DNA of 64,000 bases from Candidatus Moraniibacteriota bacterium (GCA_016699975.1 CP064994.1:711828-775827); one strand, 5' to 3'; numbered from the stretch's first letter, positions 4,937 through 30,885 are shown. Numbers and translations are program-made. Notes: generated from the letters alone by a model not told the origin.

Positions 4937-6282
4937 ACCAAATTTCACCTCCAACTCTCTCGCCTCGCTCGAAACGCCTGCTCTTTGTGGGACGAATCAT
5001 TTTGGGCATTGTGTTTCTCTCGAGTCTCGCTCTCTTTTCTTGGAGCGTTCTCTTCCCGCCGCAGCCACTTTTCTTCGATTTTCGAGATGCCAAACTTTCG
5101 GTGAGCACCCTCAAAAATCCAAGGACATTCCCTCCACCCTTTTCTCCGGGAGGACAATTTAGGGATCAAGATATCCTCACGCTCGATGCTTCGGCGTTCG
5201 GAGAATATACGACGCTCGCTCTTCAATTTACTGCTCTCAAAAATTCTCCACTTGGAAAAGGACGTGTCTCTGTGCGCCGCTCGCAGCAGGCGCACTTCTT
5301 TCCGGAAGGGAGTGGAGCGTCGTTCCCTCCCGGCACTCTCCTCCAAGAAAATGGTTCGTTCTATCAGATCGCACCCGATGGTCGCCGAAAAAAATTTCCG
5401 TCCAAAGAATCTGCGGAGCGACTTGGATTTCGTCCAGAAACATTTCTGCCTGTTCGAAACGAGGATCTTTCTCTCAATCAAGATGGCGGCTTGCTTGAAT
5501 GGGAGCCATCCGCTCTCCCTGAAGGAACATTCGTTCACGCGGACAATACCTACTACGAATGGCGCTCAGGAACACTTCTCCCGTTCGTGAGCGAGAATGC
5601 ATTTCGTGCACGGTTTCGGGATGAGTGGGCCATTAAAAAAGATGCTGCCTTCGTCCGATTAGTGCCGCTTTCGGAAAACTGGCGATCCTTTCCAAGTGGG
5701 ACGCTGTTGTCGTGGGGAGATGGAGTCTTTTTGATGGACCAGACAAGCCCGCGACCTATTCTCGGTGTCGATATATTTTTGTCGCTCGGGTACTCGTGGG
5801 AAGATGTTGTGCCCGCCAATGACGAAGAAATCAGCCTCGAACAAAAAGGGCGATCCGTCGACTTTAGCGCCGCTCACCCCGATGGCACTGTTTTTCACGA
5901 GACGGATACGAATCGTTTCTTCCTCATCCTCAACAAAACAAAACACGAACTCCGTGGAGACGCCATTCGAAACTTTTGGCTCGGAACAAGAAAACCAATC
6001 GCCGTTTCTTCGCAATCACTCACCACTTCCGCCACATGTGATCTTTCCGTCCACTCTTTTCTCTTTTTCGCCCCCACTCTCGAGTGCCGTCTCCCACTTG
6101 AAGCACTCGCAAAATTTCGAGGAGATACGTATGAACTCCGCACGACTTTTCTTGGCGCATCCGCCTTCGAACGCCTCGATGTTTCTTTCGAAGCTGCAGT
6201 AAAGAAAGAAACACTTCTGACCCGTCTTTCCAAACTCAAGAATCGCGTGCTCGCCCGATACCTTCCCACCGCAGAACCCTAG
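4933..6282 (+). CDS. hypothetical membrane-anchored protein
   Basis: 449 aa. N-terminal TM/signal anchor (RIILGIVFLSSLALFSWSVLF). ATGA overlap with the upstream gene suggests translational coupling. No family recognised. Confidence 0.6.
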   Translation: MNQISPPTLSPRSKRLLFVGRIILGIVFLSSLALFSWSVLFPPQPLFFDFRDAKLSVSTLKNPRTFPPPFSPGGQFRDQDILTLDASAFGEYTTLALQFTALKNSPLGKGRVSVRRSQQAHFFPEGSGASFPPGTLLQENGSFYQIAPDGRRKKFPSKESAERLGFRPETFLPVRNEDLSLNQDGGLLEWEPSALPEGTFVHADNTYYEWRSGTLLPFVSENAFRARFRDEWAIKKDAAFVRLVPLSENWRSFPSGTLLSWGDGVFLMDQTSPRPILGVDIFLSLGYSWEDVVPANDEEISLEQKGRSVDFSAAHPDGTVFHETDTNRFFLILNKTKHELRGDAIRNFWLGTRKPIAVSSQSLTTSATCDLSVHSFLFFAPTLECRLPLEALAKFRGDTYELRTTFLGASAFERLDVSFEAAVKKETLLTRLSKLKNRVLARYLPTAEP

Positions 6283-6312
6283 AACTTCCCCAAAATTTTT
6301 TCACTTGGCTTT

Positions 6313-6774
6313 ATGATTTCACGTTTTTCTCATCTGTATTCATCTCTCGAGTTTCGTCTCGTCGCACACCAACTCGTTCGCGATGCAATTTTCTTGTCAC
6401 TCATCGCCTTGATCGGCATCCTTTCGCTCGAAAGCATTCTCCCGGGAACAATCTCTCTTCGATTCGGGATCGTTTTCTTTAGCGCGGGTATCCTCCTTCT
6501 CCTCCTTGCAGAACAAGCGCTCGCCCCTCACACTCTTCCTCCACCAAAAGAAAAAATTCCTTCCAAACGATGGGGGCGCATTCTCTTTTTCGGCTGGTCC
6601 GTTTTCCTTTTTGCAAATGCGCTTGTCGGTTTCCATCCCATCGTTCTCCTTTTCTCAGTGCTCGCAACACTTCTTTCATTCCGACTTCTTCTTACAGAAT
6701 ACCAGGAGGAGAAAACCACTGAAAAAAATTCACTCGTTCCAAAAGAGTCCAACCATAACCGCTCGCTCGTATGA
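6313..6774 (+). CDS. hypothetical integral membrane protein
   Basis: 153 aa with about 4 hydrophobic segments. 4-nt overlap with the downstream glycosyltransferase. Confidence 0.55.
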   Translation: MISRFSHLYSSLEFRLVAHQLVRDAIFLSLIALIGILSLESILPGTISLRFGIVFFSAGILLLLLAEQALAPHTLPPPKEKIPSKRWGRILFFGWSVFLFANALVGFHPIVLLFSVLATLLSFRLLLTEYQEEKTTEKNSLVPKESNHNRSLV

Positions 6775-7921
6775 GGATTGTTGTACAGGCTGCCGACCTC
6801 GATGCGCCCCGTATCGACGGAACCCGCATTTACTTGCTCCGGCTTCTCGAACGTTTTGGCGCGCTCACCCCACAACACGCGTGGCACCTTTTTCATCGAA
6901 AGCCATTTAACCCTGCACTCACTCCTCCTTCATTCAAAAATTATGAGGAACACTGTATTCCGTTTCCCTGTTTCTGGACACAAACGCGCTTCTCCTGGGA
7001 AATAATGCGAAGAAAACCACATCGGCTGTTCATGCCGGTTCAGTCACTTCCTTTCTTTCTCTCCACGGAAACCGAGTCGATCGTGACGATCCATGATCTT
7101 GCTTTCAAAATTTTTCCCAAACATTTTCCCACCAAAGACCTTCGCCGACTCAACTGGTTTACCGACTTTTCGGTACGACAAGGAACGAGACTCATTGCCG
7201 TTTCAGAATCCACGAAGCGAGATATTCTCACTTTCTACCCAGATGTTCCCGAAAAAAAGATTCGTGTTATTCACCACGGTTTCGATCCCATCCCTCCCTC
7301 CACCCAACACCATGCCAGAGAAGAAATGGCGGCGCTCAATTTGTTTCATCTCTCCCCGAAAAACTATGTGCTCTATGTGGGAGCTATTCAGCCACGAAAA
7401 AATCTCCTTCGACTTCTCGATGCTTTTACTGCTTCTGCTGAACGGTTTCCCGAAATGAAACTCGTTCTTGCAGGAGAAGCCGCGTGGATGAGCGAAGCCG
7501 TGTTTGAGGCAGCTCAGCGCCATCCCTTTCGGGACCGCATCGTCATCACCGATCGAGTGTCGTTTCAAATGCGAGCCACCTTGTATCGAAACGCGAGACT
7601 GTTTGTCTTTCCTTCACTGTATGAAGGTTTCGGCCTTCCGATCCTGGAAGCGTTTTCGGCGCGCGTTCCGGTAATTGTCGCTCGCAATTCGAGCCTCACC
7701 GAAGTCGCCGGAAACGCCGCTTTCTTTTTGACGCCCAAGAAAGCAGCGAACTCCAAAGTGCGATCGAAACACTGTGGGAAGACTCAAGAAAACGGGAAGA
7801 TCTGATCGCGCGTGGCACACGAGAGCTGGAGCGATTCTCCTGGGATCGGTGCTCATCCGAAACCGCCTCGTGGATTCTTGGCGATGAGTCTCATTCCTCA
7901 AAGATTCACGCAGGAGAGTAA
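6771..7921 (+). CDS. glycosyltransferase family 1 (GT4-type), frame broken near the 3' end
   Basis: Contains FPSLYEGFGLPILEAFSARVPVIVARNSSLTEVAG, the classic GT1 EX7E region. After the T5 run at 7725-7729 the conserved C-terminus (DAQESSELQSAIETLWEDSRKREDLIARGTRELERFSWDRC...) continues in frame 1 to a TAA at 7919-7921. Confidence 0.8.
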
Positions 7922-8210
7922 GGAAAGAAAATATCCAAAGGACGAGAGTTTTACAAAAATATCACAGCGATTCGAAAAACTTTTTATAAAGAGCGGTCGC
8001 GAAGAGTGAACGACAAGATCAGCATTTCACAACAGAACAAAATTTTGAAAGTGTTTTTCCTTCTCACCGTAAAAATATTCCCGAAGCAATGGGGAACATT
8101 TTTGAGTGAGTCTGCAGAAAAGACTCGAGACGAATGCGGACTCTCTCTCCAAAAATCGTGAACCCTGTGGGAACAAGAAGGGTGCTCGGGAAAGAGGGCA
8201 GAAAAAAATT

Positions 8211-8921
8211 TTAGTGAAGAACAGTGCCTATCCCCCGCTCGCCAAGCAAAACGCGGCGCAAATTTTCGGTATCGGCTCCATCCATGACAGTGACTGAAAA
8301 CCCCTTCTCTTCGGCAAGTTTCGAAGCAATTGGATCGAAAGGCACATTCATTCCAGGACGCCAGACATCTCCAATGAGGGCGCGGTATTTTTTCCACGAC
8401 AGGGATTCAAATCGTGTCGCATCCGTGTATTCCTTGGGATTCCGGTCATAGACACCGTCCACATTGGAGAGATTGAGGAGAGAAGAAAAGCCCAAATATT
8501 CCGCAAGCAAAACAGCAATGTAATCCGTTGAGAATCCAGGTCTCCATCCACCCGCCACCAAGATCGGTTCTTTCACGTGTAAAAAGTCTTCGAGATCGTG
8601 CGGGTTCGTGTTAATTTTCGGAAACGCAAACTCGCGAAACACCGTTCGCAGAAAGTGTGCATTCATGCGCGTCGCATGGATGCCAAGCCAATCCTTGTCT
8701 TCGTCTTCGATATGGTGAATCTGTCCCGCAGCATTGATATATCGCCTCGCGGTCTTCCCTCCACCAACGACCAGAACAAACGAGCAACCGTCTCCGATAC
8801 GTTCAACGATCGTTTCGTAAAATCGACCGATAAATCCCGTATCGATTTCATCAGGAACAACAAGCGAACCCCCAACCGACAGTAAAAATTTTTTCGGCGT
8901 CATGCGTGAAGTAGAGTTCAA
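8211..8921 (-). CDS. pyrH: UMP kinase, archaeal/amino-acid-kinase type
   Basis: 236 aa. Motifs LSVGGSLV, VVGGGKTARRY, LVAGGWRPGFSTD and SNVDGVYDRNP are typical of archaeal-type UMP kinases. Confidence 0.8.
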   Translation of the reverse strand: MNSTSRMTPKKFLLSVGGSLVVPDEIDTGFIGRFYETIVERIGDGCSFVLVVGGGKTARRYINAAGQIHHIEDEDKDWLGIHATRMNAHFLRTVFREFAFPKINTNPHDLEDFLHVKEPILVAGGWRPGFSTDYIAVLLAEYLGFSSLLNLSNVDGVYDRNPKEYTDATRFESLSWKKYRALIGDVWRPGMNVPFDPIASKLAEEKGFSVTVMDGADTENLRRVLLGERGIGTVLH

Positions 8922-10156
8922 GATTTAAGAAGATTTACCACTTCTTCAAACGAACACATCGTCGCCTCAGATTTCGATCGTTCTTTGACCTCAGCCCCAC
9001 CATGTTGAAGCGAGCGTTTCGAAAGGACGATTCGGTACGGAATACCAATAAGATCACTGTCGGCAAATTTTTCTCCCGCACTCCCTTCCCGATCGTCAAA
9101 CAAGACATCAATCCCAAGATGAGCAAGTTTCTCGTACCACAAAAGGGCCACTCGGTCTTCGCCAAGGGAGAGAAGATGCGCCCGAAACGGCGCAACCGAC
9201 TTGGGCCAGACGATGCCACGATCGTCACACAAGGTTTCCACAATCGTCCCCATGAGGCGCGTCGGCCCGATGCCATAACTCCCCATGACGACGGGTTTTG
9301 CTCTCCCACTCTGGTCCATATAGAAAAGACCAAGCGCTTCCGAAAATCGTGTGCCGAGCTTAAAAATATTGCCAACTTCTATCGAAGTTTTCTTTTCAAG
9401 AGCCGCTCGGTCGAGCCCCAGATCGGACAAGACCTCGTCGGTGTAGACTTCTTCGTTCACGGCGATATTCTTTTCTCGTGAAAGATAAATTGTATCTTCT
9501 CCTGCGTCGCTCAACGCCTGAAATTCGTGACTGTATTTGGAAAAAATACCGCCACTCGCGAACGTTTTAAAGGTGATCGCACCGATCCCCACGCGCTCGA
9601 AGATTGTTGTGTACGCTTCTGCACACCGTTCGTAAAACGCATCAAGATCTGCTTCGTTCTCATTGAAAGAATAGAGATCTTTCATCAAAAATTCGCGCCC
9701 GCGCATAATCCCGCTTTTCGCTCGTTCTTCGTTCCGAAACTTCGTTTGTATCTGATAGCTGTAGACCGGCAAATCGCGATATGACGAGATATGTTGTTTC
9801 ATGATCGCCGTGATCGGCTCTTCGTGGGTAAACCCAAGCCCAACCTCTGTCCCATTTTTGAGATGAGTTTTAAACCAATTGTCGACCGCGTCGTCGCTCC
9901 AACGGTTCGTCGCCTCCCACATCTCGGGATTTTGGAGAGCGCTTAAGAAAACTTCCCGCCCCCCGATTCGATCCATTTCTTCTCGGATGATCGCTTCAAT
10001 TTTTCGAAGTACGCGGAGTCCGAGCGGCAGAAATTCGTAGACGCCCGCCATTTCTTTGTGGATGAAGCCGGCCCGAATAAGCAATTGCGCATTCCGACTC
10101 ACTTCATCTGTCGGATTTTCGCGCCTCGTTTTCGTAAAAAGTTCAGATTGCTTCAT
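8918..10156 (-). CDS. proS: prolyl-tRNA synthetase (short form without the insertion editing domain)
   Basis: 412 aa. The N-terminus QSELFTKTRRENPTDEVSRNAQLLIRAGFIHKEMAGVYEFLPLG and class II motifs (FRNEERAKSGIMRGREF) match ProRS. Confidence 0.9.
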   Translation of the reverse strand: MKQSELFTKTRRENPTDEVSRNAQLLIRAGFIHKEMAGVYEFLPLGLRVLRKIEAIIREEMDRIGGREVFLSALQNPEMWEATNRWSDDAVDNWFKTHLKNGTEVGLGFTHEEPITAIMKQHISSYRDLPVYSYQIQTKFRNEERAKSGIMRGREFLMKDLYSFNENEADLDAFYERCAEAYTTIFERVGIGAITFKTFASGGIFSKYSHEFQALSDAGEDTIYLSREKNIAVNEEVYTDEVLSDLGLDRAALEKKTSIEVGNIFKLGTRFSEALGLFYMDQSGRAKPVVMGSYGIGPTRLMGTIVETLCDDRGIVWPKSVAPFRAHLLSLGEDRVALLWYEKLAHLGIDVLFDDREGSAGEKFADSDLIGIPYRIVLSKRSLQHGGAEVKERSKSEATMCSFEEVVNLLKS

Positions 10157-10371
10157 AGGACTTAGGACTATTGGACACGCAGAAATAAAGATGATCTTTA
10201 TTGAGAGCTTCCATCATCTTATCGGGTTCTTCCCTCGAAAGCAACCGATCTCTCATGAAGCCAAGAAGAGCCTCGAAACATCATTTATTCAAAGGATTAG
10301 AGTAAATTCTCATCTTTGTAAAAATAAGAAAAAGAATACTGCTCTAACCTTTTTGGTTCATGATAATGTAA

Positions 10372-10758
10372 AAAAGTAATACGCGCACCAATATCCAAGC
10401 TGAACATTCTCTTTCAGGAAAAAGAGTACCGTTACTTTTTATCTTTACGGGACAGGAACTGTACCAACATTACAAAGGAGGAATTGACGAAGTCATTGTC
10501 GTAGCATGCCACAGTGAAACTTTAGAGGAATTCGTTGTTTACAAATCAATGTACAATGAAATTGAGTGTGATCGAGGCTCTTTCTGGGGAAGACCAACAT
10601 TCATGTTCTTCGAAAATGTCATCGTTGATGGCAAAGTAAAATCACGTTTCACACTATTGAAAAAGAAGGGGGATGTATCCTGCTATTGTAGAGAAATTGA
10701 TAAAAAGCAATCCCTTGTCTCGAATTCGTTCTATCCTATACAAGTCCCTTTATTTTAA
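10372..10758 (+). pseudogene. DUF1653-like remnant without a canonical start codon
   Basis: The frame-0 reading ...GQELYQHYKGGIDEVIVVACHSETLEEFVVYKSMYNE...FWGRPTFMFFENVIVDGKVKSRF matches the DUF1653 pattern (YRHYKG..Y.V...H.ET.E..VVY..LY....W.RP..MF). There is no ATG/GTG/TTG between the upstream stop (10369) and the conserved core, only a CTG at 10459. Confidence 0.45.
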
Positions 10759-10845
10759 GCAGGGTCTACTATAGATATTTTTCATATATATTTATAGGGA
10801 GAAACGGCTTGTGTAAGCTACAAAATTCCATAGGATCTTTTGAAA

Positions 10846-10868
10846 AAATCGCCAAAAAATGGCGATTT
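10846..10868 (+). terminator. hairpin (AAATCGCC-N7-GGCGATTT) flanked by A/T runs, possible bidirectional terminator
   Basis: 8-bp perfect stem. TTTCT follows on the plus strand and T6 on the minus strand. It lies 90 nt after the DUF1653 remnant. Confidence 0.3.
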
Positions 10869-11055
10869 CTCAGAAATGCTGGGACGATGGGGTACACATG
10901 GGAACAACTGCACCCCCCGTATTCTCTCAAAATGGCTCGAATGTGGCAATGGGCTGGAGGTAATGCGAGAACGGATGGAGCGGGTTATGACGCGGTAGTT
11001 TTTTGATAAATCTACGAGAAGATGACACAACAAAGCCATAAAATAGTCACGGATG

Positions 11056-11085
11056 TTGACTTCTACTGATTAAACGTGCTATTGT
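11056..11085 (+). promoter_or_regulatory. sigma70-like promoter candidate for the nucleotide cassette
   Basis: TTGACT (11056-11061), an 18-nt spacer, then TATTGT (11080-11085). About 60 nt downstream an AAAGGAGAG RBS sits 4 nt before the ATG at 11144. Confidence 0.3.
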
Positions 11086-11143
11086 ATAGAGTCTTAATTT
11101 TAAGACGAGTATCTTACCAATTGAAGAGAAAAAGGAGAGAATC

Positions 11144-11641
11144 ATGCATGAAACAGCAAAAATATTGATCGCGCAGATTATCGCGAACAAGAAAGAAGAA
11201 GTCGAAAGAACCGAGCAAGCTCGTCAAGTTTCACTCAAAGACGCTCAAGAAGCGGAAGGGGCGATGATTTCTCGCTATGATACTTTTCTTGAAGAAGCTC
11301 AATATCTCGCGGGCGGACAGAATAAACGGTTGCTCGAAGCAAAAGCTGTTCTCGCTTTACTCGAGAGCCTCCTTCAGAGGGATGCCGATGTTTCACGTCG
11401 GGCATCCATTGGTTCTATAGTAACTATCGAGAATATCGAGACTACGGAGATAAAGAAATTCCTTCTCGTTTCTGAAGAAGCGGGCGGCGGAGTTTTTTCG
11501 TGCCACCCTGATGAGGGTGAGAAAATTTCAGCCGTAAGCCCGTCTTCTCCAATTGGCAAGGCGCTTTTCGGAAAAGAAAGCAGGGAAGAAATCGAATGCC
11601 CCATGCTCAAAAGAGCATGGGAAATCAGCGAAATTCAATGA
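11144..11641 (+). CDS. GreA/GreB-family (Rnk/Gfh-like) RNA polymerase secondary-channel factor paralog 1
   Basis: 165 aa. N-terminal predicted coiled coil and a C-terminal domain with IGSIVTIENIETTE...AVSPSSPIGKALFGKESREEIE, resembling the GreA C-terminal domain (IS..SP.G.AL.GK..GD). The coiled-coil tip reads EGAMISRYDT rather than GDLSENAEY. Confidence 0.6.
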   Translation: MHETAKILIAQIIANKKEEVERTEQARQVSLKDAQEAEGAMISRYDTFLEEAQYLAGGQNKRLLEAKAVLALLESLLQRDADVSRRASIGSIVTIENIETTEIKKFLLVSEEAGGGVFSCHPDEGEKISAVSPSSPIGKALFGKESREEIECPMLKRAWEISEIQ

Positions 11642-11650
11642 TAGCGGAGA

Positions 11651-12232
11651 ATGCTCATGCAAAACGACAGTCCGATGATTTTAGTTATAGAAAGCATAAA
11701 TTGTGTTGGTAAAACAACCCTCGCTAAATCCATTGCTTCAAAACTCGGCTTCCGGTATCTCTACACACCACAGTCGCCTCTTTCGGTGATTCGTAAAGAG
11801 ATAGAGTCCCTGGATGATTCAAATACCCGGTTTTTCTACTACCTGACTTCGGTTATTGCCGTTCAGAGGAAAATCCGATCGGATATCGATTTGGGAAGGA
11901 GTGTTGTTATTGATCGCTATATTCACTCGACTCTCGTCATGCACCGCGTGCTTGGCGTTGATGTGTCCTGTGTGAGTATCGAAAAATTGCCCATTCTCTG
12001 GCCGACGGTTTCTGTGCTCCTCACGGCTACGTCGGAAACGAGAGTTGAAAGAAGAAACAAGCGTGATGGTTCGCAGGATTATGACCAGCGCATTGAGCAA
12101 TCTACTGGATTGCTTGATCGAGCGCAGGAGGCTTTCGCGGATTCTCATCAATGGTCGCTTGTGCTTGAAACTGATGGCCTTTCGGCGGAGCAAGTTGAGG
12201 CACAAGTGACACTACTTTTACAGGAGCAATAG
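11651..12232 (+). CDS. thymidylate-kinase-like nucleotide kinase (P-loop)
   Basis: 193 aa. Walker A-like VIESINCVGKTTLA, a Tmk-like VVIDRYIHST (DRY) motif and a lid-region RVERRNKRDG. Confidence 0.65.
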   Translation: MLMQNDSPMILVIESINCVGKTTLAKSIASKLGFRYLYTPQSPLSVIRKEIESLDDSNTRFFYYLTSVIAVQRKIRSDIDLGRSVVIDRYIHSTLVMHRVLGVDVSCVSIEKLPILWPTVSVLLTATSETRVERRNKRDGSQDYDQRIEQSTGLLDRAQEAFADSHQWSLVLETDGLSAEQVEAQVTLLLQEQ

Positions 12233-12234
12233 CC

Positions 12235-13191
12235 ATGTATAATGTCTTTGAAGAATTACTCGCGCAAGGAAAAGTGGAGACGACTCGTCTCAACAGCCTT
12301 CGCGTGAAGCTTCACGTACCGTGCCAGTGGACATGCAACTTTTGTCACATGGAAGGCAATCCTTCATCGCAACCGATTCGAAATGACATGCAGTTTTCCG
12401 GTGCGCTCGTTCGTTTCCGGGATTGTTTCGGATTTACCGAAGTACATTTCACTGGAGGCGAACCGTCAATTCATCCCGAGATTACCCAGTTCATTGCGAA
12501 AGCAAAGAGCTTGGGATTCAAGGTGAAAATGACAACGAATGGACAGTCAAAGCACTCGCGATATTTCGAGTGTATATGGTCGGGACTCGATGAGCTCAAC
12601 ATGAGTGTTCACACTCTTGACCCAGCGGAATTGGGGAAGATTATGTCACCGCCCAAAGACGCGGCGTGGGGAAAAAAAGCGATTGAAAAACAAGTTGGTC
12701 TCATTGAGGCTCTCAATGGAAAGGTTCGTCTCAAGATCAATACGTGCATTGGCGAAACGGAACAGCCGGCAATCGCGCTTGCTGATTTTGTGAGGCGCAG
12801 GGATATTTCGTGGCGTCTCATGAACGTGCTGGAGATTCCAGAAATCTCGTATGCCTCTCTCGCAAGAGCGTGCCAAACGCTCGGAGCAACTCCAGTGCGG
12901 GCGTCGGTCATTCGAGGAAGTTCGAGTTGTTCCATTGATATGCGCTGTGAAGATGGGTTCGCTTTCAAGCTGAAACTCATCCAGCCGCATTTCTTGGAAG
13001 GCATGTGCGCCAATTGCGAATTGAGAGCGTATGGCGGATGTTATGAATTCGCATACGGACCAAGACTTGAAATGGAACGCGGCATGCTCATGGTGCGAAA
13101 CTGTGTGCACCGCGACGGTCCGCCATTCTCCCTTCCCATTCACGCCTACTTCTCTCACCCCATTGCTCAACAATTGGGCGAAGAACTGTAG
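12235..13191 (+). CDS. radical SAM enzyme, MoaA/viperin-class
   Basis: 318 aa. CX3CX2C motif (LHVPCQWTCNFCHMEG), FTGGEPS, MTTNGQ and LNMSVHTLDP, plus a C-terminal CANC...C arrangement parallel to the auxiliary cluster of MoaA. Confidence 0.8.
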   Translation: MYNVFEELLAQGKVETTRLNSLRVKLHVPCQWTCNFCHMEGNPSSQPIRNDMQFSGALVRFRDCFGFTEVHFTGGEPSIHPEITQFIAKAKSLGFKVKMTTNGQSKHSRYFECIWSGLDELNMSVHTLDPAELGKIMSPPKDAAWGKKAIEKQVGLIEALNGKVRLKINTCIGETEQPAIALADFVRRRDISWRLMNVLEIPEISYASLARACQTLGATPVRASVIRGSSSCSIDMRCEDGFAFKLKLIQPHFLEGMCANCELRAYGGCYEFAYGPRLEMERGMLMVRNCVHRDGPPFSLPIHAYFSHPIAQQLGEEL

Positions 13192-13216
13192 AGAAGAAGC
13201 TCGCAACAAAAACCTA

Positions 13217-13248
13217 AAGGCTAACGCAACGCGTTAGCCTTTTCTTTG
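13217..13248 (+). terminator. rho-independent terminator between the radical SAM and CYTH genes
   Basis: AAGGCTAACGC-AAC-GCGTTAGCCTT (11-bp perfect stem) followed by TTCTTTG. Confidence 0.55.
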
Positions 13249-13288
13249 AGAAAAATGCGCTAACATTCCCTCAAGTAAAGCCATATTT

Positions 13289-13810
13289 ATGGAAATAGAG
13301 CTCCGGGCAAGCGTTGACGATCCCGACGCAATAAGGAACGCCTTGGCGACACAAGCAGAGCACAGGGGAACGTCAAACGAACATGATTTTTATCTTCGCC
13401 ATGAAAGCGACAGAGATCGCTCGCTCATTTTGCGTATTCGGCGAAAAGAAAGCGGGTCATTGCTAACGTTCAAAGGCAAAGCTCTCGGCGATGATACCGC
13501 ATGGCCGGATGTTGATATTCCACTCACCGATTCCGACAATCTCCAACAGCTTCTTCTTGGAAGTGGTTACGTAAAAGTAGTTGAAATCAAGAAACGCCGA
13601 TCAAGCTATCGTCTCGAAGATTTTGAAATCAATGTTGATGAAATAGAAAATCTCGGGGTCTTTGTCGAAATTGAAGGACGAGGCGACGAGGAGGGTCGAG
13701 CAAAGATAGAGGAAAAAATAATGAGTCTTCTTGTGAGTCTCGGGATTCAAAACGAAAATATTATCCGAAAGGGATATGTCACCCTTATGCTTGAACAGTC
13801 TTCGATATGA
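13289..13810 (+). CDS. CYTH-domain protein (CyaB/ThTPase-type triphosphate tunnel metalloenzyme)
   Basis: 173 aa. N-terminal MEIELR (ExExK-type motif with R). The beta-rich pattern LRIRRKESGSLLTFKG...YRLEDFEINVDEIENLGVFVEIEG is typical of class IV adenylyl cyclase / CYTH proteins. Confidence 0.75.
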   Translation: MEIELRASVDDPDAIRNALATQAEHRGTSNEHDFYLRHESDRDRSLILRIRRKESGSLLTFKGKALGDDTAWPDVDIPLTDSDNLQQLLLGSGYVKVVEIKKRRSSYRLEDFEINVDEIENLGVFVEIEGRGDEEGRAKIEEKIMSLLVSLGIQNENIIRKGYVTLMLEQSSI

Positions 13811-14286
13811 AAGACACGCCACTCCTTTTTCTTCGGAAAGATTATTTGGCGCTTGAGAAAAATATTGACGCGCTCAAAAACAACCTGAAAACGGTTGGCT
13901 TTGAAGTTGGGGAAATGTCGCATCAGAGCTCGGAAACGTGGCATGACAATTACGGTTTTGAAGAAGCCGATCGAGAAAGAAAAAGACTCGCCGGCACGCT
14001 CGAAGAATTGAAAAAAGTTTACGCGCAGGCTGAAATAGTTGAGCCGTCAGTTCACGCGGAGCACGTCTCTCTCGGATCGAAAGTCACGATACAGAATGTA
14101 GACACCCACGAGGAAAAAGTTGTTTTCGTTGGGAGCTACATGGTTCTCAAAAAAACAGACCCGAACGAATTTTCTTATGCCGCGCCTTTCGTGGCTCCGC
14201 TTATGGGCGCGTCTGTCGGCGAGGTGAGAGAAATAAAAATCGGGGGAGTGTTATCGCGGATTAAGGTTGTGGATATTCGTGAGTGA
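13807..14286 (+). CDS. GreA/GreB-family (Rnk/Gfh-like) RNA polymerase secondary-channel factor paralog 2
   Basis: 159 aa. ATGA overlap with the CYTH gene. N-terminal coiled coil with tip SSETWHDNYGFEEADRE. The C-terminal domain VSLGSKVTIQNVDTHEEKVVFVG...YAAPFVAPLMGASVGEVREIKI is GreA C-terminal-domain-like. Confidence 0.7.
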   Translation: MKDTPLLFLRKDYLALEKNIDALKNNLKTVGFEVGEMSHQSSETWHDNYGFEEADRERKRLAGTLEELKKVYAQAEIVEPSVHAEHVSLGSKVTIQNVDTHEEKVVFVGSYMVLKKTDPNEFSYAAPFVAPLMGASVGEVREIKIGGVLSRIKVVDIRE

Positions 14287-14316
14287 AAGACGATGAGGAA
14301 AAAAATATTCTGATCT

Positions 14317-15090
14317 TTATTTCAATTCCTCAATTAAACAATCCGATCCCTCGAAACATTCGTAGAAAATAGAGATTTCCTTTATAACGCGACCCGGACG
14401 ATTTGATGAGACAGACGTGTAAATGTTAATTCTATTTTCATATTTAAGTAGACGAAAAAAATCTGTATTATCTCTTTTATTTTTATTCATTTCTTTATCT
14501 TTGATGGTTGGGAAATACGAGATTGAACTTAAATTGTACAAATATTGTGAAGTTTTTCCGGCTGGAACAGGAAGCGTATTGCTGTCTGGAATAAGATGTC
14601 CGCCTTGCCCATTTACCACGAAATAAATATCATCCCACGATGTTAATGGTCGATCATAATCAACCAGTGCGTCAATGTATAGATACGCCCTTGAAAATTG
14701 TCCTCTTGATTTGTAGCTTTTTTTAATACCATCAAAATTAACTGTAGCAGGTTTATCATTTACACAACCACCAAGATGACACTCTGAAGAGATTTTTATA
14801 TTCCTAATATTAGGGTTGGGATTTGCTCCTTTTATTGCACTATAATCCGGGAGCTCGGAGGGTAACGCCTTTTGCCATAGCTCTTCCGAAGTTTTTATTT
14901 TCTCTTCTAACTCCTTTATTTCCTCAGCTCGTTGCTTTATTTTTTCATCAATGTCCCGCGAAATATTTTTCTCTATCACAACTCTTTTATTAGCCTCATT
15001 AGTCAAACCTCCAATATATAGACCCAGCAAAGTAGTTATGGAAGCTACTATTATCAAAATTAAATACGCCATCAGATCATTTTTTTTCAT
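14317..15090 (-). CDS. hypothetical membrane-anchored protein with coiled coil
   Basis: 257 aa. N-terminal TM (AYLILIIVASITTLLGLYIGG), a charged helical stretch (KIKQRAEEIKELEEKIKTSEE), then an unknown globular domain. AT-rich codon usage. Confidence 0.5.
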   Translation of the reverse strand: MKKNDLMAYLILIIVASITTLLGLYIGGLTNEANKRVVIEKNISRDIDEKIKQRAEEIKELEEKIKTSEELWQKALPSELPDYSAIKGANPNPNIRNIKISSECHLGGCVNDKPATVNFDGIKKSYKSRGQFSRAYLYIDALVDYDRPLTSWDDIYFVVNGQGGHLIPDSNTLPVPAGKTSQYLYNLSSISYFPTIKDKEMNKNKRDNTDFFRLLKYENRINIYTSVSSNRPGRVIKEISIFYECFEGSDCLIEELK

Positions 15091-15400
15091 ATCCCTTCCT
15101 TAATGTTATCGGTAATACTGTTACTGCAAGCAGAATCACCCAAAATAGGCAAAGAGCAGTTATTATCTGGTGCATTATCTTTGGTAAAGGTTTCCAAAAC
15201 TTCCAAAATCTCTTATCATATGCGGTTGCATGTAAAAAAATGGCTCCTATTGGGAGAATAAATGTATTTGAAACAACCGCGATTGACCAAGAATAATAAT
15301 CAAACTTCATCTCTAAGAGTATAAATAGAGTTAAATAACAGAAAGCAAACAGCGACGTAAAGCTGAAACACGCCCATTTTTTTTCTTGATTTGATTTCAT
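15077..15400 (-). CDS. hypothetical small integral membrane protein
   Basis: 107 aa with 3-4 hydrophobic segments. 14-nt overlap with the downstream gene. Confidence 0.45.
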   Translation of the reverse strand: MKSNQEKKWACFSFTSLFAFCYLTLFILLEMKFDYYSWSIAVVSNTFILPIGAIFLHATAYDKRFWKFWKPLPKIMHQIITALCLFWVILLAVTVLPITLRKGYEKK

Positions 15401-15479
15401 ATCGAGGTAAATAGCCTACATTATGAGATTCTCGGTTTTCATACTCGCTCGCGCTTCCACTTAATAATCTATAGGGACA

Positions 15480-16741
15480 TTATGTGTGGAATCTATGCTT
15501 AAACGCTCGTCTAAAACCAGCGTCTTCAGCTTCTTTTACGGTAAATGCGTAAAATTCACCTTTACTTTTCGTGATTACAGTTCTGTCATACTGCTGATCC
15601 ATTGGTAAGTGGTATATTTTCGTATTACCAGACTCGTCATAATTTTTGTTGCATTTAATTCTCGGGAAATTCCCAATCGGCTTGTTTTCGATGATCTCAA
15701 CACTTAATGCCTTTGCCATTTCTTTTGCTCTTTCGGATAAAGATATAGATGTAAAAATATTGGTCGCAGTTTATTTTCAGTTAAAAACCTTGCAAACTCT
15801 TCAAATGTTTTCGGTTTATTATGACTCCCAAAGTTTTTAATCCAATATTCCATGGTTGTACCAAACAATTGAAAGATGTGTTTTTCGTGTATTTCTTTAT
15901 AGTGCGCCCAATATTTACACTGAATGATACAAACCTCATTACCTTTCTTGGCGATAATATCTCTGCCTAAATCATCGAACCCGTCAATTATACCTTTGTA
16001 TTCGATAGAATAGCCTTTCTGTTCATAGATGTATCCGACGTACATCTCATAATCTCTTCCGATTGCCCATTTTGATTTATTTCTATTTTTTAGGTATCTG
16101 TCCAATGCTTTTTGATTTCTCTCCACGGAAGGGAGCTTTTTATATTCTTCAGGAGTTAAGAAATTTTTAACACGGTCTTCGCTATTATCGTCATCTCCAT
16201 CGTCATCAATCTTTACAGGAATTTCTTCATTTTCATCCTCAGCAATTAAATCAGTTAGCCAAGGAAATAGCTTTTCAAAGTAGTTAATTTTATAGTTCAG
16301 TATTTTATTTTCCCTTCTCAAAACTTTTTTTTCACTTTTTACCTCACGAACGATTTCCGCTGTTGTATGGGCTGGATGTTTTTTTGTGTTTAGATATTTT
16401 TCAAACTTTGAATCTTTCAATGCAAAATACTCAGAAAATGCTTCTGCTAACCAAGGAAAACCCATTGATTTTTGAGCAGCTATTTTTTTGACTTCTTCTT
16501 TATCTTGCGCAACTTTGTGATTCCATGATTCTACTTTTGATACCCAATTTTTTCTATCTTCTTCAACTTTCAATTCATGCATTTTTATAGAATTTTCCAA
16601 GCTATCTAATTTTGGTTTCAGGTCAAGATACTTTTTGGAATTAGAAACTGCCTCGCTGATCCACGAAATTACTTTCCAAAGTACGGAAATCAAAATGATG
16701 ATAAGTATCCATGCGTAATCTTCCATAAATGTTTCTGGCAC
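15480..16741 (-). CDS. Mrr-type (PD-(D/E)xK) restriction endonuclease with an N-terminal TM/coiled-coil region, frame broken at a T-run
   Basis: Core GRDYEMYVGYIYEQKGYSIEY...DLGRDIIAKKGNEVCIIQCKYW matches the Mrr_cat pattern (D...QCK). The ORFs 15704-16741 and 15480-15719 join through the A5/T5 run at 15743-15747 to give ...PIFFTSISLSERAKEMAKALSVEIIENKP.... The C-terminal tail is KIYHLPMDQQY...FTVKEAEDAGFRRA. Confidence 0.7.
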
Positions 16742-16780
16742 AGAGTTTTAAGCACTTGTCTACTATCCAATCCTTTCCCT

Positions 16781-16993
16781 CTAAGACGAACTTTTTTCAC
16801 GATCAAGAATCCTCATCACATCCCCCCTCCGATACCGCCTATCCCCTCGCGTCCCAAACCGGATCGCTTTCAAAAATCCTTTGTTGTCCCAGTTACGGAG
16901 CGTGTTCGGGTGACAATGCAAAATCTCACATGCCTCCTGAAGCGTCAGAATCTCTGATGCTTTTTCTTTGGGTTGTCTTTTCATAGGTTTCAA
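16781..16993 (-). CDS. excisionase-family helix-turn-helix DNA-binding protein
   Basis: 70 aa. LTLQEACEILHCHPNTLRNWDNKGFLKAIRFGTRGDRRYRRGDV fits the Xis/MerR-type HTH of mobile elements. Confidence 0.7.
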   Translation of the reverse strand: MKPMKRQPKEKASEILTLQEACEILHCHPNTLRNWDNKGFLKAIRFGTRGDRRYRRGDVMRILDREKSSS

Positions 16994-17033
16994 CTTACTA
17001 TGAGTCTACAAGATATTCTAATTTACGCAAAGT

Positions 17034-17819
17034 ATGCCCCGAAAAAGAGGATGCAAGGCATTTGGTCTTCCGATACAACTCATTGTTTTTAACAATGAAC
17101 TCCCGCTATTGGCAAAGACTCTTATGGGAGATGTGCCTGATATTGCGCCAATCTTTCAACATGGCTCAACACCAACAAGCACCCTCTTTCTCAAACCAAA
17201 TCTCTCCGTCCAGGGAAAATTCAGGCTTGAAGGAAAAGAACAGCACCGTATTTACCATATCCAACAATTCAGATTCAATTACATTGACGGAAAAGGAAAT
17301 AGGAATTTCGACGAGTTGATTGGAGGAAGGCTCTATCCGAGTATCGTAGATATCAAATCAAAAAACGAGCTCCTACAGTTCATTGCCAATAACCATCCAG
17401 ATTTTTCAATAGTTCCATCGTCTGAAGAACAAGAACACCTGAATAAAAAGTATTGTGATGCTGGATTAAAGGGATACCCAATATTCGATATTGTATACTC
17501 GGTCGATTCCAAACCAAAAATGTCTTTTCCAATATCGAAAGATCAATGGGAAGCTATCAAGGACATAAACAGAGATTTCTTTTGGGAGAAAATCCAGAAA
17601 TTTCAAAGTTTTGTTCAGGGATGGATTACCAAAGAATCAGACAAAGCGCTTTCTGAAGATACCTTACTTTGGCTTAATCGGGAACTTGAAAATGTCAGCC
17701 CCATTCTCACGGCGTACAAAGGATCGGTTTGGGAGCGGGTTCGAGACGATAATGTCAAGCCATCAACAGAAGAGGAGCGGGAACAGCTCGCGAAAAAGAT
17801 ACGGCGATTCGGTTTGTAA
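17034..17819 (+). CDS. hypothetical protein
   Basis: 261-aa ORF divergent from the HTH gene. No motif recognised. Confidence 0.45.
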   Translation: MPRKRGCKAFGLPIQLIVFNNELPLLAKTLMGDVPDIAPIFQHGSTPTSTLFLKPNLSVQGKFRLEGKEQHRIYHIQQFRFNYIDGKGNRNFDELIGGRLYPSIVDIKSKNELLQFIANNHPDFSIVPSSEEQEHLNKKYCDAGLKGYPIFDIVYSVDSKPKMSFPISKDQWEAIKDINRDFFWEKIQKFQSFVQGWITKESDKALSEDTLLWLNRELENVSPILTAYKGSVWERVRDDNVKPSTEEEREQLAKKIRRFGL

Positions 17820-17821
17820 GA

Positions 17822-18080
17822 ACGGCGCATAATCTTTTCAGTCGAGGCACTCCCGAGACGAAACGAGAGGTCATCGATATTCTTTCTTCGAACATCGGAA
17901 TCAAAGACCGGAAAATCGCTTATTTCAACCTCAATGACCCGTTTGCATGGCTTCGCGAAGATGTGGAAAGCATACAGGCGGAAATGTGTGCCTTCGAACC
18001 GAAAAAAGAGGCGGTTGATGGCTCTGTGAAAACAAAAACAGAAGCGGTAGCTTCTGCTCGTTCTATGCTGCTGGGGTGCT
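17822..18080 (+). pseudogene. C-terminal remnant of a (serine) recombinase/integrase
   Basis: The frame-1 reading ...TPETKREVIDILSSNIGIKDRKIAYFNLNDPFAWLRE... resembles the conserved C-terminal tail of large serine recombinases (L..SN....D.K......PF). No start codon or catalytic domain is present. The stop lies inside tRNA-Gln. Confidence 0.4.
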
Positions 18081-18141
18081 AGGATTCGAACCTAGGATCA
18101 TGGGACCAGAACCCATTGCCTTACCGCTTGGCTACACCCCA
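18071..18141 (-). tRNA. tRNA-Gln (anticodon CUG)
   Basis: Minus-strand sequence TGGGGTGTAGCCAAGCGGTAAGGCAATGGGTTCTGGTCCCATGATCCTAGGTTCGAATCCTAGCACCCCAG folds as a cloverleaf. The acceptor stem is 7 bp, the anticodon loop is TTCTGGT and the T-loop is TTCGAAT. No encoded CCA. Confidence 0.9.
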
Positions 18142-18336
18142 ATTCACTTTCGCGTGACCGAGATAGAAAAAAGAGGAGAAAAGTTGTGACGGGCGTTCAA
18201 TTTTGCAAAAGGCCTTCGAATTCCGAGTGACGAATCGGAAAAACAAGACCAAGAAAAAGAGGAACATTCGTCCCTCCTTACGGTAGCAAAAAGAGCGGAA
18301 AAATCAAGAAAAGCGCCGCCAGGACACCACACACAT

Positions 18337-19264
18337 TTATATTCGGAGATACCGGCGAACCGCAAGGAATCCACTCAACGCTCCCACAAACACGCCCACA
18401 AAAAGAAGTCCCAAAAAGACCGAGGCCACATTCGAGAGAAAAGAGCCCATGAGCCCAGTTCCTTCCACGATGCTGCTTGTCATCGGGTTTGCGCGCTGAA
18501 AAGAAATATACGAATAGAGGAAAAAGAGAGACAATCGCAGCGATTCCTCCATAGAGGATGCCTTCGACAACCGAGGGAGTGCGAACATAGAGATTGGAGG
18601 CGCCGACGAGGCGCATGATTTCAAAATCCTCGTGGCGTGCGTGCATGGTAAGACGAATGGTATTGAACATAACGAGAAACGCAATCAACAGAAAAATCAC
18701 CCCAAGAATCGCTCCCTGCCGAACCGCTTCTTCGCGAATCGAAGCGAGTCGATTGATCACCGATTCGTTCTCGCGATAATTGATGCGAAAAATATCATCT
18801 TTAAACGAGGACGTTTCCAGTGCGCGATTGATGGTTTCGTAGTCGCTGGGCGAACTCGCCTTTATGGAAATTGAGGGGAGGGAGGGATTCCCTCCGATTT
18901 CCTCGAGGGCCTGTTCGATAATTTCTTTGTTTCCGGCAAGCTCGCTTCGTTTACGAAAGGTTTCGAGCGCTTCGTCTTCGGATGTGTAGACGGCCGTTTT
19001 CACTTCCCGATATTTCTCCAGCTCTTTTTTGATGGCGAGAATTTTTCCTTCGCTCGTCCCGGCTTCGAAAGAAACGGTGATATCCATTTTATTCTCGAGA
19101 TTTTTGAGAATCGAATTCGTTGCGATTGCTTGGACAGCCGCGAGACCAATCACAAAAAGCGCGAGCGAAGTCGTAAGAATAGCGGAAACCGAAAGCCATC
19201 CACTTCGCACAAAGCTTCTCTCCCCTTCTCGCACTGCCCGCATGAGTTTTATTCCCTTTGACAT
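18337..19264 (-). CDS. ftsX: cell division permease FtsX, frame broken at a homopolymer
   Basis: N-terminus MRAVREGERSFVRSGWLSVSAI, a periplasmic domain and TM helices. After the A5 run at 18521-18525 the conserved C-terminus (...LYSYISFQRANPMTSS...GFLAVRRYLRI) continues in the frame of ORF 18337-18684. Confidence 0.85.
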
Positions 19265-20324: not shown

Positions 20325-21432
20325 TTATGTTGCCGAAACCATGAATTTCGAGTGATCCTTCTTCAGAAAACTTTCCATGAATTCGTCCAGTTTTCCATCA
20401 AGAACATCGGAGGCCTGCGGTGTTTCGTATTTGGTGCGATGATCTTTCACGAGCGTATATGGATGGAGCACATACGAACGAATTTGACTTCCGAACGCCG
20501 CACTCTTCTCGACCCCGCGTAATGAACGCTGCTCCGCCTCTTGTGCCTCCAATCTTTGCTGCTCGAGTTTGGCGCGCAGCATTGAAAGGGCGGTTTCTTT
20601 GTTCTGAAGTTGGGACCGCTCCGTTTGGCAACTCACGACGATACCGCTCGGAATATGTCGAATGCGCACTGCTGTTTCTGTCTTATTCACATTTTGTCCG
20701 CCCGCTCCCGACGAACGATAGGTATCCACTTCGATATCTTCGGACCGAATTTCCACGCCTTCCTTCGCAGAAAGTACCGGGAGCACTTCGACCGACGCGA
20801 ATGAAGTTTGTCGAAGGTGATCAGCATTAAAGGGTGAGAGTCGAACCAAACGATGCGTCCCCATCTCTCCAAAGAGATATCCGTACGCGTACTCGCCCGT
20901 TATTTCGATCGTTGCGCTTTTGATACCCGATTCGTTGCCGCGCAATTCTTCAAGGAGTCGCGACGAAAACTTCCGACGCTCTGCCCATCGCACATACATT
21001 CGCACGAGCATCTCCGCCCAATCCTGAGCATCGACACCACCAGCTCCACTCTTTACCGAAAGAAGAGCACTATGACGATCATACGGCCCATCGAAGTTCG
21101 TCCGAAATTCCAACGCCTCGATCTCCGAAGCAATATCCGCAAACTCCCGTTCAAGTTCGACAGCCTCTTCTTTTTCCACTTCAAGACTCGAGAGCTCTCG
21201 AATATCAGAAAGCTCCTTTTCCAACCGGTCGAAGAGCGCAACTTCAGACTGGAGAGACTCTCGCTCCTTGAGAATATGCGACGCCTCTGTGCTCTTACTC
21301 CAAAATTCCTCTTGTTGCGATTCGCGATCAAGTTCTGTGACGCGCGATCTTTTGTGTGCGACGTCAAAGAGAGTCCCGCAAGTGCAGGAGTTTTCGAGTC
21401 ATCATTTCGGCTCGCGTCCGAATATCATCCAT
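20325..21432 (-). CDS. prfB: peptide chain release factor 2 with programmed +1 frameshift
   Basis: A 22-codon ORF0 ([22 protein letters not shown]) ends at CTT TGA C. The +1 frame continues [23 protein letters not shown]... into the 299-aa ORF, which carries SPF and [23 protein letters not shown]. Confidence 0.9.
21363..21369 (-). other. prfB +1 programmed ribosomal frameshift site (CTT TGA C)
   Basis: Canonical RF2 autoregulatory slippery site with an upstream G-rich (GCGGGA) SD-like element. Confidence 0.85.
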
Positions 21433-21514
21433 AGCAAAATGATATCATATTTTTCTCCTCAATTCCAATCGAGAGAAAAGAAGAAAAAAATTCTCCCAGA
21501 AAGGAGAATGTGTG

Positions 21515-21587
21515 AGCCACCTTGCGGGATCGAACCGCAGACCTGCGCGTTACGAGTGCGCCGCTCTACCAACTGAGCTAAGGTGGC
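21515..21587 (-). tRNA. tRNA-Thr (anticodon CGU)
   Basis: GCCACCTTAGCTCAGTTGGTAGAGCGGCGCACTCGTAACGCGCAGGTCTGCGGTTCGATCCCGCAAGGTGGCT. The cloverleaf has anticodon loop CTCGTAA and T-loop TTCGATC. Confidence 0.9.
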
Positions 21588-21794
21588 CGTCAAGACGAAA
21601 GATACAAAAAAGTGTACGGGAAGTGCTCCCAAAAATCAAGAGCGCATTTTTATGATGAAACCATCTTTCGAAAAAGGGTTTCATGCTTCTCTGATTCTTC
21701 CCCCCTCTCTATTCTTTCAGAAAAAAGACGAGTCGCCTATTTATTGAAATAGACGACTCCGCTCTCCTGTTCCTGTAAATTTTATTTTACTTCA

Positions 21795-22442
21795 TTACCA
21801 CTTTACCTCGTTTGAAAAAGGGCCTGCTAAGCCTAACTCAGCAATATATGCCTTGACCGCAAAGAAGTAGAACACGCCCCAAGGAACAGAGACGCTTGTT
21901 GTTGTCATACTCCCAACGTCTTGGAAGTTACTATACACTCCCGACGCAGTTCCCCAAAAGATCTGGTACTGAAGCTGATAAGGAAGAGTAGTGTGAGCCG
22001 GATCCCATATAAACACTATAGTCTTCATCGGGCTTATCGACACTTTTGCCACATTCGACAAGACGGATGACGCACCTGCGACATCCTGCGTTTTGAGGGC
22101 GCATTGGTAACTCATTCCCGGAGAAACATCAGTCCAGACAAAACTTTGTCGAGTACCGGGAACGCCTGGCTGAGGGACATTCGAGAGTACTTGCAAAGCA
22201 CTCGAGTCCCAGCTGCGAGTACTGATAACAACTGTGGGAGAGCACTTTATAATGTACTCCCTGAGGGCAATGGTGGACGCTGGCACGATCCATGTGAGAC
22301 GGATTTCCGGGTTCTCACTTCCGCTTGTTATGGTGAGCATGAGATCTGTCACCCCCGCAGGAGCAGCATATGCCTCATATGCTTCAAGAGAAGCGAGAGT
22401 TGCCAAACAGAAAAAAATAGTAAAGAACTTGTTGCCTTTCAC
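21795..22442 (-). CDS. secreted protein with two fibronectin type III-like domains
   Basis: 215 aa. Signal peptide MKGNKFFTIFFCLATLASLEAYEAYA. FN3-like strand patterns (IRLTWIVP...Y.IKC, YQCALKTQDVAG). Confidence 0.55.
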   Translation of the reverse strand: MKGNKFFTIFFCLATLASLEAYEAYAAPAGVTDLMLTITSGSENPEIRLTWIVPASTIALREYIIKCSPTVVISTRSWDSSALQVLSNVPQPGVPGTRQSFVWTDVSPGMSYQCALKTQDVAGASSVLSNVAKVSISPMKTIVFIWDPAHTTLPYQLQYQIFWGTASGVYSNFQDVGSMTTTSVSVPWGVFYFFAVKAYIAELGLAGPFSNEVKW

Positions 22443-22524
22443 TTTTTACCCTCCTCAGAAATGTCAAAAAACAACAAAGAGCCCTCTGGCTCTTTGAGAC
22501 TTTAGCACAGGATTTTTTCTTTGA

Positions 22525-30791: not shown

Positions 30792-30885
30792 AGATCCAGA
30801 AAAATGGAGAGCTTTACGAGGGGGAAAAAAGATCGACAAAGAAGAGGGAAAGAAAGAGGAGAGGATGCTCCGCAAAGAGATTTTT

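Follow-up and report, generated by a model that had tools for sequence, protein, structure and literature searches.

What history could place some 8 kb of accessory DNA between proS and a tRNA gene on the chromosome of a bacterium from a phylum of very small genomes? The question is raised by a 64,000-nucleotide stretch (the window; GCA_016699975.1, CP064994.1:711828-775827) of a Candidatus Moraniibacteriota metagenome-assembled genome (MAG) from the Patescibacteria. Its gene order is pyrH-like, proS (8918-10156, minus strand), the island, tRNA-Gln(ctg) (18070-18141, minus strand), ftsX, ftsE, prfB and tRNA-Thr; the island ends at 18069, and the proteins are on record as QQS20640.1-QQS20648.1, whereas exact look-ups of the window's ProS and FtsX gave no entry. 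The island has probably built up from the remains of mobile elements at a tRNA-Gln hotspot that is used by large serine recombinases (LSRs). A first-pass annotation, made from the sequence alone, had proposed a hotspot at the tRNA that took up insertions one after another, with decay, a proposal now supported by composition, by absence of the island from relatives, by three strain-level states of the locus and by the recombinase family to which its remnant belongs.

The right-hand end of the island carries the C-terminal remnant of an LSR (17801-18082, plus strand, recognised with HMMER), about 93 codons long with its stop codon at 18080-18082. The open reading frame (ORF) overlaps the 3′ end of tRNA-Gln(CTG), the putative integration target identified by ARAGORN and Rfam, by 13 nt. 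An exhaustive HMMER search with the remnant frame (89 residues) against 1.84 billion representatives matched 14 proteins. The remnant aligns to residues 426-509 of P0346 (E 8.5e-12), a protein of 533 amino acids (aa) with Resolvase, Recombinase and Zn_ribbon_recom domains whose C-terminus is the translation of an antisense tRNA, and it stays in register with the conserved pattern ...AHDLF...SSN..LKD.K....PF... of LSR homologues. The earlier claim of a recombinase tail fused to the tRNA end thus gains an LSR match and a measured overlap, but the tail begins at about 17801 and not at the stop codon of the neighbouring 261-aa ORF. Among viral contigs in IMG/VR, 16 LSR-bearing loci were found and 13 were checked for tRNAs; in four of these (L125, L127, L128 and L133) the LSR frame terminates 34-104 nt inside a convergent tRNA-Gln(ttg), which means that the C-terminus of the recombinase is encoded across the attachment site. 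From these homologies the family of the remnant is predicted to use tRNA-Gln as its integration site, the ORF extending across the junction. The 3′ end of tRNA-Gln is in all likelihood a hotspot targeted by an LSR family of Patescibacteria and their phages.

Strains of the same species differ at this end of the island. Four contigs from other samples (L093-L096) are 99.5-99.9% identical to the window. L094 stops at 18046. The match of L095 runs from ftsE to 16813 (99.8%), inside the 3′ end of a gene for a helix-turn-helix (HTH) protein; beyond it L095 diverges into another HTH C-terminus followed by another gene. L096 matches down to about 17800 (alignment to 17792), and upstream of that junction the LSR frame goes on with residues and a motif of the family consensus (GLGEEIETAIRF..., STRAGLGEEIETAIRF...). 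Since the extra residues follow the LSR consensus, that strain carries a longer LSR, perhaps an intact one. The deletion junction between the LSR tail and a truncated 338-aa gene is common to the window and L095. Between flanks that are 99.6-99.8% identical, the locus is found in at least three states within one species (one with the LSR longer, one with it truncated and fused to the 338-aa gene, one with other DNA past the HTH gene), which is direct evidence of stepwise deletion and replacement.

A relative whose FtsX is 74% identical (L097) keeps the order tRNA-Thr-prfB-ftsE-ftsX-tRNA-Gln, with a tRNA that is 100% identical over 72 nt, and continues after it with unrelated small phage-like ORFs including a YopX/PHROG-98 protein. 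Besides the YopX-family protein, the small orphan ORFs of this L097 stretch (4784-14573) include a weak tail-fibre-like hit; they may be what is left of another prophage at this hotspot.

The proS side has another kind of history. In five relatives with ProS 74-78% identical, including the complete genome CP064989.1, proS has a divergent ABC transporter 120-140 nt upstream, itself preceded by MFP, RNase H, recJ, hpf, murB and murC, the loci agreeing with each other. The window has its orthologues of that transporter at 48151-49838 and its mur genes at 27.8-31 kb, leaving about 38 kb (10157-48150) between proS and the transporter that adjoins it in the relatives. Since the transporter and the mur genes are displaced, the proS edge of the island is a rearrangement breakpoint. 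The gene hpf is displaced too, along with murB and murC at 27.8-31 kb, and a glycosyltransferase gene (6771-7805) is inverted with respect to the relatives. No island gene was found upstream of proS in the five closer relatives or around proS in 80 GTDB loci, which are distant enough for synteny to be poor. Nor did the relatives examined have a tRNA within 10 kb of proS. Judged from these gene orders, proS and tRNA-Gln are not ancestral neighbours; the comparison that the first-pass annotation had called for shows no adjacency of the two in the relatives examined.

Between proS and the first recombinase stub lies an AT-rich stretch (10157-10872, GC 0.363) that is essentially non-coding, as had been described. 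It contains a DUF1653 homologue on the plus strand (10456-10758, PF07866, E 3e-19), which is probably a pseudogene: homology runs from 10456 and the first ATG, GTG or TTG codon of its frame stands at 10549, 31 codons into the domain. No other ORF of note occurs in 10157-10872. The conspecific contig L093 (99.5% identical) confirms the junction of proS with 10157 and extends to 10293, while upstream of proS in the relatives the stretch has no counterpart. It amounts to debris, the probable DUF1653 pseudogene included, where a chromosomal rearrangement has its breakpoint.

It could still be asked whether the whole region is ancestral chromosome of locally low GC, neither accessory nor mobile. 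Its five-gene cassette is close to the host in composition, and the right-hand 1.3 kb does recur in the species (18046-18069 in L094-L096; L096 goes on to 17792 and L095 to 16813). The view is hardly credible in the face of relatives that lack any island gene near proS and of a relative (L097) that carries different content after an identical tRNA-Gln. Nor does an ancestral stretch account for two recombinase remnants and a cassette that is 99% identical in an unrelated context. The first-pass annotation had named synteny with related genomes as the observation that would tell against its proposal; what the relatives show is an ABC transporter beside proS and, in L097, phage-like genes after the tRNA.

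The second recombinase remnant escaped the first-pass annotation, which had recorded only the tail at the tRNA. It is an LSR 3′ stub (10873-10998, plus strand) comprising the last 41 or so codons and a TAG stop, and it is 99% identical to the end of the LSR on contig L106. That contig is 99% identical to the window from 10873 up to the contig's end, and directly upstream of the match it encodes an intact LSR of 526 aa (Resolvase, Recombinase and Zn_ribbon_recom domains); genes for a type I methylase and a specificity subunit come before it. LSR homologues on IMG/VR contigs are 36-40% identical to this enzyme. The metagenome contig L099 has three copies of the approximately 125-nt stub (4389-4511, 6915-7040 and 8638-8772) in one orientation; two share the left edge of the window's copy and the third is degenerate there. 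They delimit modules of about 2 kb, each different, the last of which is the cassette. A core of about 48 nt is nearly invariant across copies. The variable columns of the stub, 17/10/16 by codon position, reveal no conservation as protein, and its core pattern has no match in viral contigs. An integron-like cassette array was considered and rejected, the recombinases being of the serine type (not IntI) and the RNA fold of the stub being without covariation support (covariation term +1.16).

The left edge of the stub reads TGCTGGG (10877-10883). On the plus strand of the window this heptamer occurs at three sites only: 10877, 18069 (to 18075, the 3′ end of tRNA-Gln) and 38220. The first-pass annotation had proposed a search for att-like repeats of the tRNA 3′ half. 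When tRNA-Gln was aligned locally with both strands of 9800-18030, the best score (9.0) did not exceed that of shuffled sequences (9.7 +/- 0.9); no repeat of a tRNA half above chance was found, and the core common to the two ends is 7 nt long. A general repeat search gave nothing meaningful. The stub edge may be a recombination site of these LSRs, either an element end or a target. Just outside it sits a terminator-like orphan hairpin (10842-10871, minus strand; -15.8 kcal/mol with ViennaRNA, with an A-tract and a T-tract), which could be the former terminator of tRNA-Gln (B arm).

These features would also suit a single LSR element spanning 10877-18075 at tRNA-Gln, altered later by internal deletion and one insertion only, with attL at the stub edge, the cassette as its far end, and attR formed by the LSR tail and the tRNA. 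TGCTGGG would then mark both ends, and the hairpin would stand where the original tRNA terminator is expected. The LSR frame of L106 reads into stub and cassette as it would at a circular or attP-type junction, and in P0343, which is closely related to the window's tail, the C-terminus is a stub-like peptide (...FEVMRERMERVMAQ). Against this stand three GC classes inside the supposed element (0.47, 0.34 and 0.42), a conspecific (L095) that already differs inside it, and a cassette that occurs without the stub in L098-L101. Moreover, the L106 LSR and the window's remnant are of different subfamilies: BLASTP gave no alignment between them and exhaustive HMMER alone supplied the LSR link. The two stubs need not, therefore, stem from one element. 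A single element is a possibility that we rank well below an accumulation of remains from several.

Composition separates the parts of the island. With 2-kb windows outside the island as the baseline (GC 0.491 +/- 0.016), the cassette segment (11075-14289, GC 0.470) is near the host (z -0.4 to -1.5), just as had been noted from its base content, whereas the AT-rich block that follows it (14290-16812) has GC 0.344. The sliding-window analysis proposed earlier brings this block out clearly, with z values that reach -8.8 for GC and 9.6 for tetranucleotide distance. The stretch at 10157-10872 also deviates from the host, and the segment with part of the HTH gene and the 338-aa gene (16813-17806) has GC 0.422. 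Elsewhere in the window, 39000-42500 is a compositional outlier (GC z -2.4, tetranucleotide z 3.6), as is 21000-24500 (tetranucleotide z 2.5-3.3). An Rfam scan of 9800-18600 (E <= 1) found the tRNA alone, and profile searches found no Resolvase domain, Phage_integrase domain or PHROG structural hit in any island ORF. An intact mobile element or prophage was rejected, the island being without a complete recombinase and without structural or replication genes. Since it has no intact recombinase, the region is unable to direct its own excision or transfer.

The AT-rich block is read from the minus strand and contains, as described before, a nuclease and orphan membrane genes. Two membrane-type ORFs of 257 aa (14317-15090) and 107 aa (15077-15400) have no family hit, and exact copies of both proteins are on record from other assemblies. 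The third gene (15480-16741) encodes a membrane-anchored Mrr-type nuclease (Mrr_cat, PF04471, 4.9e-6); a T run with a 1-nt gap divides it into ORFs of 345 and 79 aa. Its homologue on the IMG/VR contig L118 is one ORF of 413 aa (69-78% identical in aa sequence and, over 1.2 kb, 73% in DNA) adjoining genes for tape-measure, tail and tail-fibre proteins. On this homology the block appears to share its nuclease with a tailed phage. Beyond it lies, also on the minus strand, a gene for a small DNA-binding protein of the HTH_17/MerR type (16781-16993; HTH_17 7.9e-11, MerR_1). It answers to the excisionase-type HTH described before, with a match to the 'excisionase family' model TIGR01764 that falls below that model's cutoff; the strain-level breakpoint of L095 at 16813 is in the 3′ end of this gene. 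The 261-aa ORF on the plus strand (17034-17819), previously taken for an orphan, turns out to be a truncated copy of a gene for a 338-aa protein. It retains 256 of 338 codons (17034-17800), diverges from its cluster mates P0336-P0339 (338-339 aa, > 90% identical) after '...AKKI', and lacks their Cys-rich tail. The 338-aa protein has no match in Pfam, PDB or viral contigs.

The order of events can be proposed along the following lines. LSR elements would insert with a recombinase ORF that converges on the tRNA and reads into it through the attachment site. A deletion may then have cut the recombinase to its last 93 or so codons, the same deletion fusing the remnant to the 3′-truncated 338-aa gene beside the HTH gene. 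Further in would lie the phage-shared block of 34% GC, which differs between strains, and then the cassette with its own promoter behind the second stub.

Several points weigh against this history. The coincidence of TGCTGGG at two ends was spotted post hoc, the searches for att repeats turned up none above 7 nt, and the LSR of L106 belongs to another subfamily than the remnant at the tRNA. The divergence of L095 and L096 is confined to the last 175 and 26 nt, respectively, where a contig-end artefact is possible, although the L096 residues do fit the LSR consensus. The frameshift in the nuclease gene, which might pass for decay, may be an assembly error: the window's ftsX (18278-19264) is frameshifted by a 2-nt (AG) deletion at 18524 that is absent from three conspecific assemblies, in which FtsX is intact at 302 aa, and this frameshift is probably a consensus error in the MAG. 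Two further genes, MFP (51221-52575; 436 aa in relatives) and murC (29372-31004; 465 aa in relatives), are each divided into two overlapping ORFs, which suggests further indel errors or pseudogenes. In view of the ftsX deletion and the other split genes, single-base frameshifts are not taken here as evidence of decay. Finally, the junctions at about 14290 and within about 10294-10872 are without confirmation from an independent assembly. These junctions and the apparent indel errors would also be expected if the mosaic were an artefact of chimeric joins in the MAG. Such an artefact is very improbable, given that independent assemblies reproduce the proS/10157 junction (L093), the succession of tRNA-Gln, tail, 338-aa gene and HTH gene (L094-L096) and the passage from stub to cassette (L106), and that other assemblies hold exact copies of the 257-aa and 107-aa proteins.

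The accumulation of remains includes one intact cargo only, the five-gene cassette. All five genes are on the plus strand behind a promoter-like site (11056-11085; TTGACT-18-TATTGT with an upstream TG) that lies within the block conserved with L106, L099 and L098-L101. The first and last genes encode Gre-factor paralogues of 165 aa (11144-11641; PF01272, 1.5e-7; conserved D46/E50) and 159 aa (13807-14286; PF01272, 3e-8); their family profile matches Gfh1 and GreA structures over the full length (1.9e-13), and acidic residues of the coiled-coil region are kept. Between them are a dTMP-kinase-like nucleotide kinase (11651-12232, 193 aa; PF02223, 8e-10), a MoaA/viperin-like radical SAM enzyme (12235-13191, 318 aa) and a CYTH protein or triphosphate-tunnel metalloenzyme (TTM; 13289-13810, 173 aa; PF01928, 2e-20). 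The CYTH protein scores 97 bits with TIGR00318, above the cutoff of 58, and its nearest solved relative is the TTM Saci_0718 (8e-11). The Gre-like protein reaches 47.6 bits with the NCBIfam GreA model (cutoff 139) and the kinase 34.8 bits with the dTMP kinase model (cutoff 83); being far below the curated cutoffs, they are not housekeeping copies, which bears out the earlier statement that the island has no housekeeping genes.

The radical SAM enzyme retains CxxxCxxC together with C258, C261, C269 and C290, all invariant in 30 homologues, and the C-terminal group includes the motif CxxCx7C. Its structural model (pLDDT 93) has MoaA as its best match (TM 0.60-0.62); viperins, AbmM and BlsE, enzymes acting on nucleotides or nucleosides, are partial matches. 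Assignment as a viperin was rejected on the score with NF038283 (63.7 bits, cutoff 180) and the extra invariant cysteines, and assignment as MoaA on scores of 70-78 bits against cutoffs of 231-325 and on the kinase, CYTH and Gre-like neighbours present in every locus. A preprint on viperin evolution uses MoaA as outgroup only and does not contain the cassette's radical SAM family.

Relatives of the radical SAM enzyme are rare, numbering 56 among 5.8 billion clusters. The Gre-like, kinase, radical SAM and CYTH genes are kept together at radical SAM identities of 47-99%, usually with the second Gre-like gene, amid unrelated flanks, and the operon occurs in other Patescibacteria (radical SAM 47-80% identical). 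In L098-L101 DNA identity of 87-88% extends from 11049/11090 to 14243/14289 only, the flanks being unrelated. By these comparisons the cassette is portable, a unit that moves between genomes and has had a history separate from that of the island. The locus L085 (374-12016) has two copies of the Gre/kinase/radical SAM/CYTH group, the first without the kinase, which bracket genes for a deaminase, DJ-1, a cupin, an NTP transferase, a second CYTH protein, NDK and an HSP70-like protein.

What the cassette does can be approached through its neighbours and its enzymes. Against the PADLOC models the kinase matches PDC-M51B (1.2e-26) and VakA (7e-14) and the radical SAM enzyme matches pVip weakly (3e-18), while the CYTH protein and both Gre-like proteins have no hit. 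A known PADLOC defence system was rejected, the kinase and the radical SAM enzyme alone giving hits and no one system being present in full. Elsewhere the cassette is accompanied by type I and type II restriction-modification (R-M) genes, GmrSD, AbiEii and Fic. These observations suggest that it is probably a mobile nucleotide-analogue system tied to RNA polymerase and defensive in function. The kinase would supply a nucleoside di- or triphosphate to the radical SAM enzyme, which would alter the ribose or base of the nucleotide, as MoaA, viperin and AbmM do; the CYTH protein would act on the triphosphate, and through the two Gre-family factors the product would be tied to RNA polymerase at its secondary channel. 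The case for defence is weakened by the nature of the association, which is a loose one, cassettes elsewhere also having housekeeping and two-component genes as neighbours. Literature searches likewise found no published or experimental support for a defence role, and nothing relevant on this combination of genes or on PDC-M51.

An accessory operon of nucleotide or transcription physiology is a competing explanation that we consider the less probable one. The product of such an operon could be, for example, a cofactor made from a modified nucleotide, or an alarmone-like regulator working on RNA polymerase together with Gre-type factors. This explanation draws on L085, where two copies are embedded among genes of nucleotide metabolism (deaminase, NDK, NTP transferase and second CYTH), on the several contexts with housekeeping or two-component genes, and on a radical SAM enzyme closer to MoaA than to viperin. 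It fits poorly with so sparse a distribution, with identities of 87-99% across unrelated contexts and adjacency to LSR, R-M, GmrSD, AbiEii and Fic genes, and with a kinase resembling viperin-associated and candidate-defence kinases. A further and tentative idea links two novelties: an undescribed cassette system that aims modified nucleotides at RNA polymerase, and an LSR stub that serves as a portable site for stacking cargo. The system may be antiviral or regulatory, its modified nucleotide acting via, or being countered by, the dedicated Gre factors. The stub of about 125 nt, with a left edge mimicking the acceptor end of tRNA-Gln, may let LSRs stack 'stub plus cargo' units, three in L099 and one in the window.

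How Patescibacteria, with their very small genomes, acquire and shed accessory genes is little understood; the locus is a concrete case. It documents a tRNA-Gln hotspot served by LSRs whose ORFs cross the attachment site, and a stepwise decay caught in three states within one species. The rare five-gene operon, which moves as a unit, is a defined candidate for tests of defence or of action on RNA polymerase. As a feature the island itself is of an ordinary kind in an under-studied phylum; the interest lies in the cassette, which is portable, and in the LSR stub, which recurs.

Parts of this architecture are familiar from other systems. A preprint on Prochlorococcus elements describes cargo and remnant arrays at tRNA hotspots (bioRxiv 10.1101/2020.12.28.424599). 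Like tRNA-associated genomic islands in general, the island abuts a tRNA 3′ end with a recombinase gene at the junction, has atypical composition, strain-variable cargo and piled-up remnants, and is absent from relatives. Unlike them, it involves an LSR and not a tyrosine integrase, with an ORF that crosses the attachment site into the tRNA; a 7-nt core was found and no duplicated tRNA 3′ half, and no intact recombinase is left.

Well-known LSR prophages and elements are those of the phiC31, Bxb1 and A118 type. The recombinases described here have the three-domain architecture of that family and homologues on viral contigs, and the short common core fits the short crossover sites of LSRs. In contrast to those elements, the target is tRNA-Gln, the C-terminus is encoded across the junction, only two 3′ stubs are left in the island, and a stub of about 125 nt recurs as a module boundary in L099. 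The nuclease resembles the phage-borne Mrr-type (type IV-like) nucleases or morons in its Mrr_cat domain and in a homologue that ends a tail-gene module on a viral contig; it differs from them in an N-terminal transmembrane segment, a coiled coil and the 1-nt split.

The cassette recalls pVip and its kinase systems in that a radical SAM gene adjoins a nucleotide kinase gene at a mobile locus beside defence genes. It departs from them in having CYTH and two Gre paralogues as additional conserved partners, and in the invariant CxxCx7C (with C290) of its enzyme, which suggests an auxiliary cluster of a kind that viperins are not known to have. MoaA (GTP 3′,8-cyclase) is the best full-length fold match and the best curated family by E-value (6e-22), and it shares cysteines in the C-terminal region. 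MoaA has these cysteines spaced as Cx2Cx13C and not as Cx2Cx7C, and the cassette differs further in being mobile, with no genes of molybdenum cofactor (Moco) biosynthesis nearby. Among the Gre-family secondary-channel factors (GreA, GreB and Gfh1), the Gre-like proteins match Gfh1 and GreA over the full length; they differ in falling far below the GreA equivalog cutoffs, and the two divergent paralogues bracket an operon predicted to modify nucleotides.

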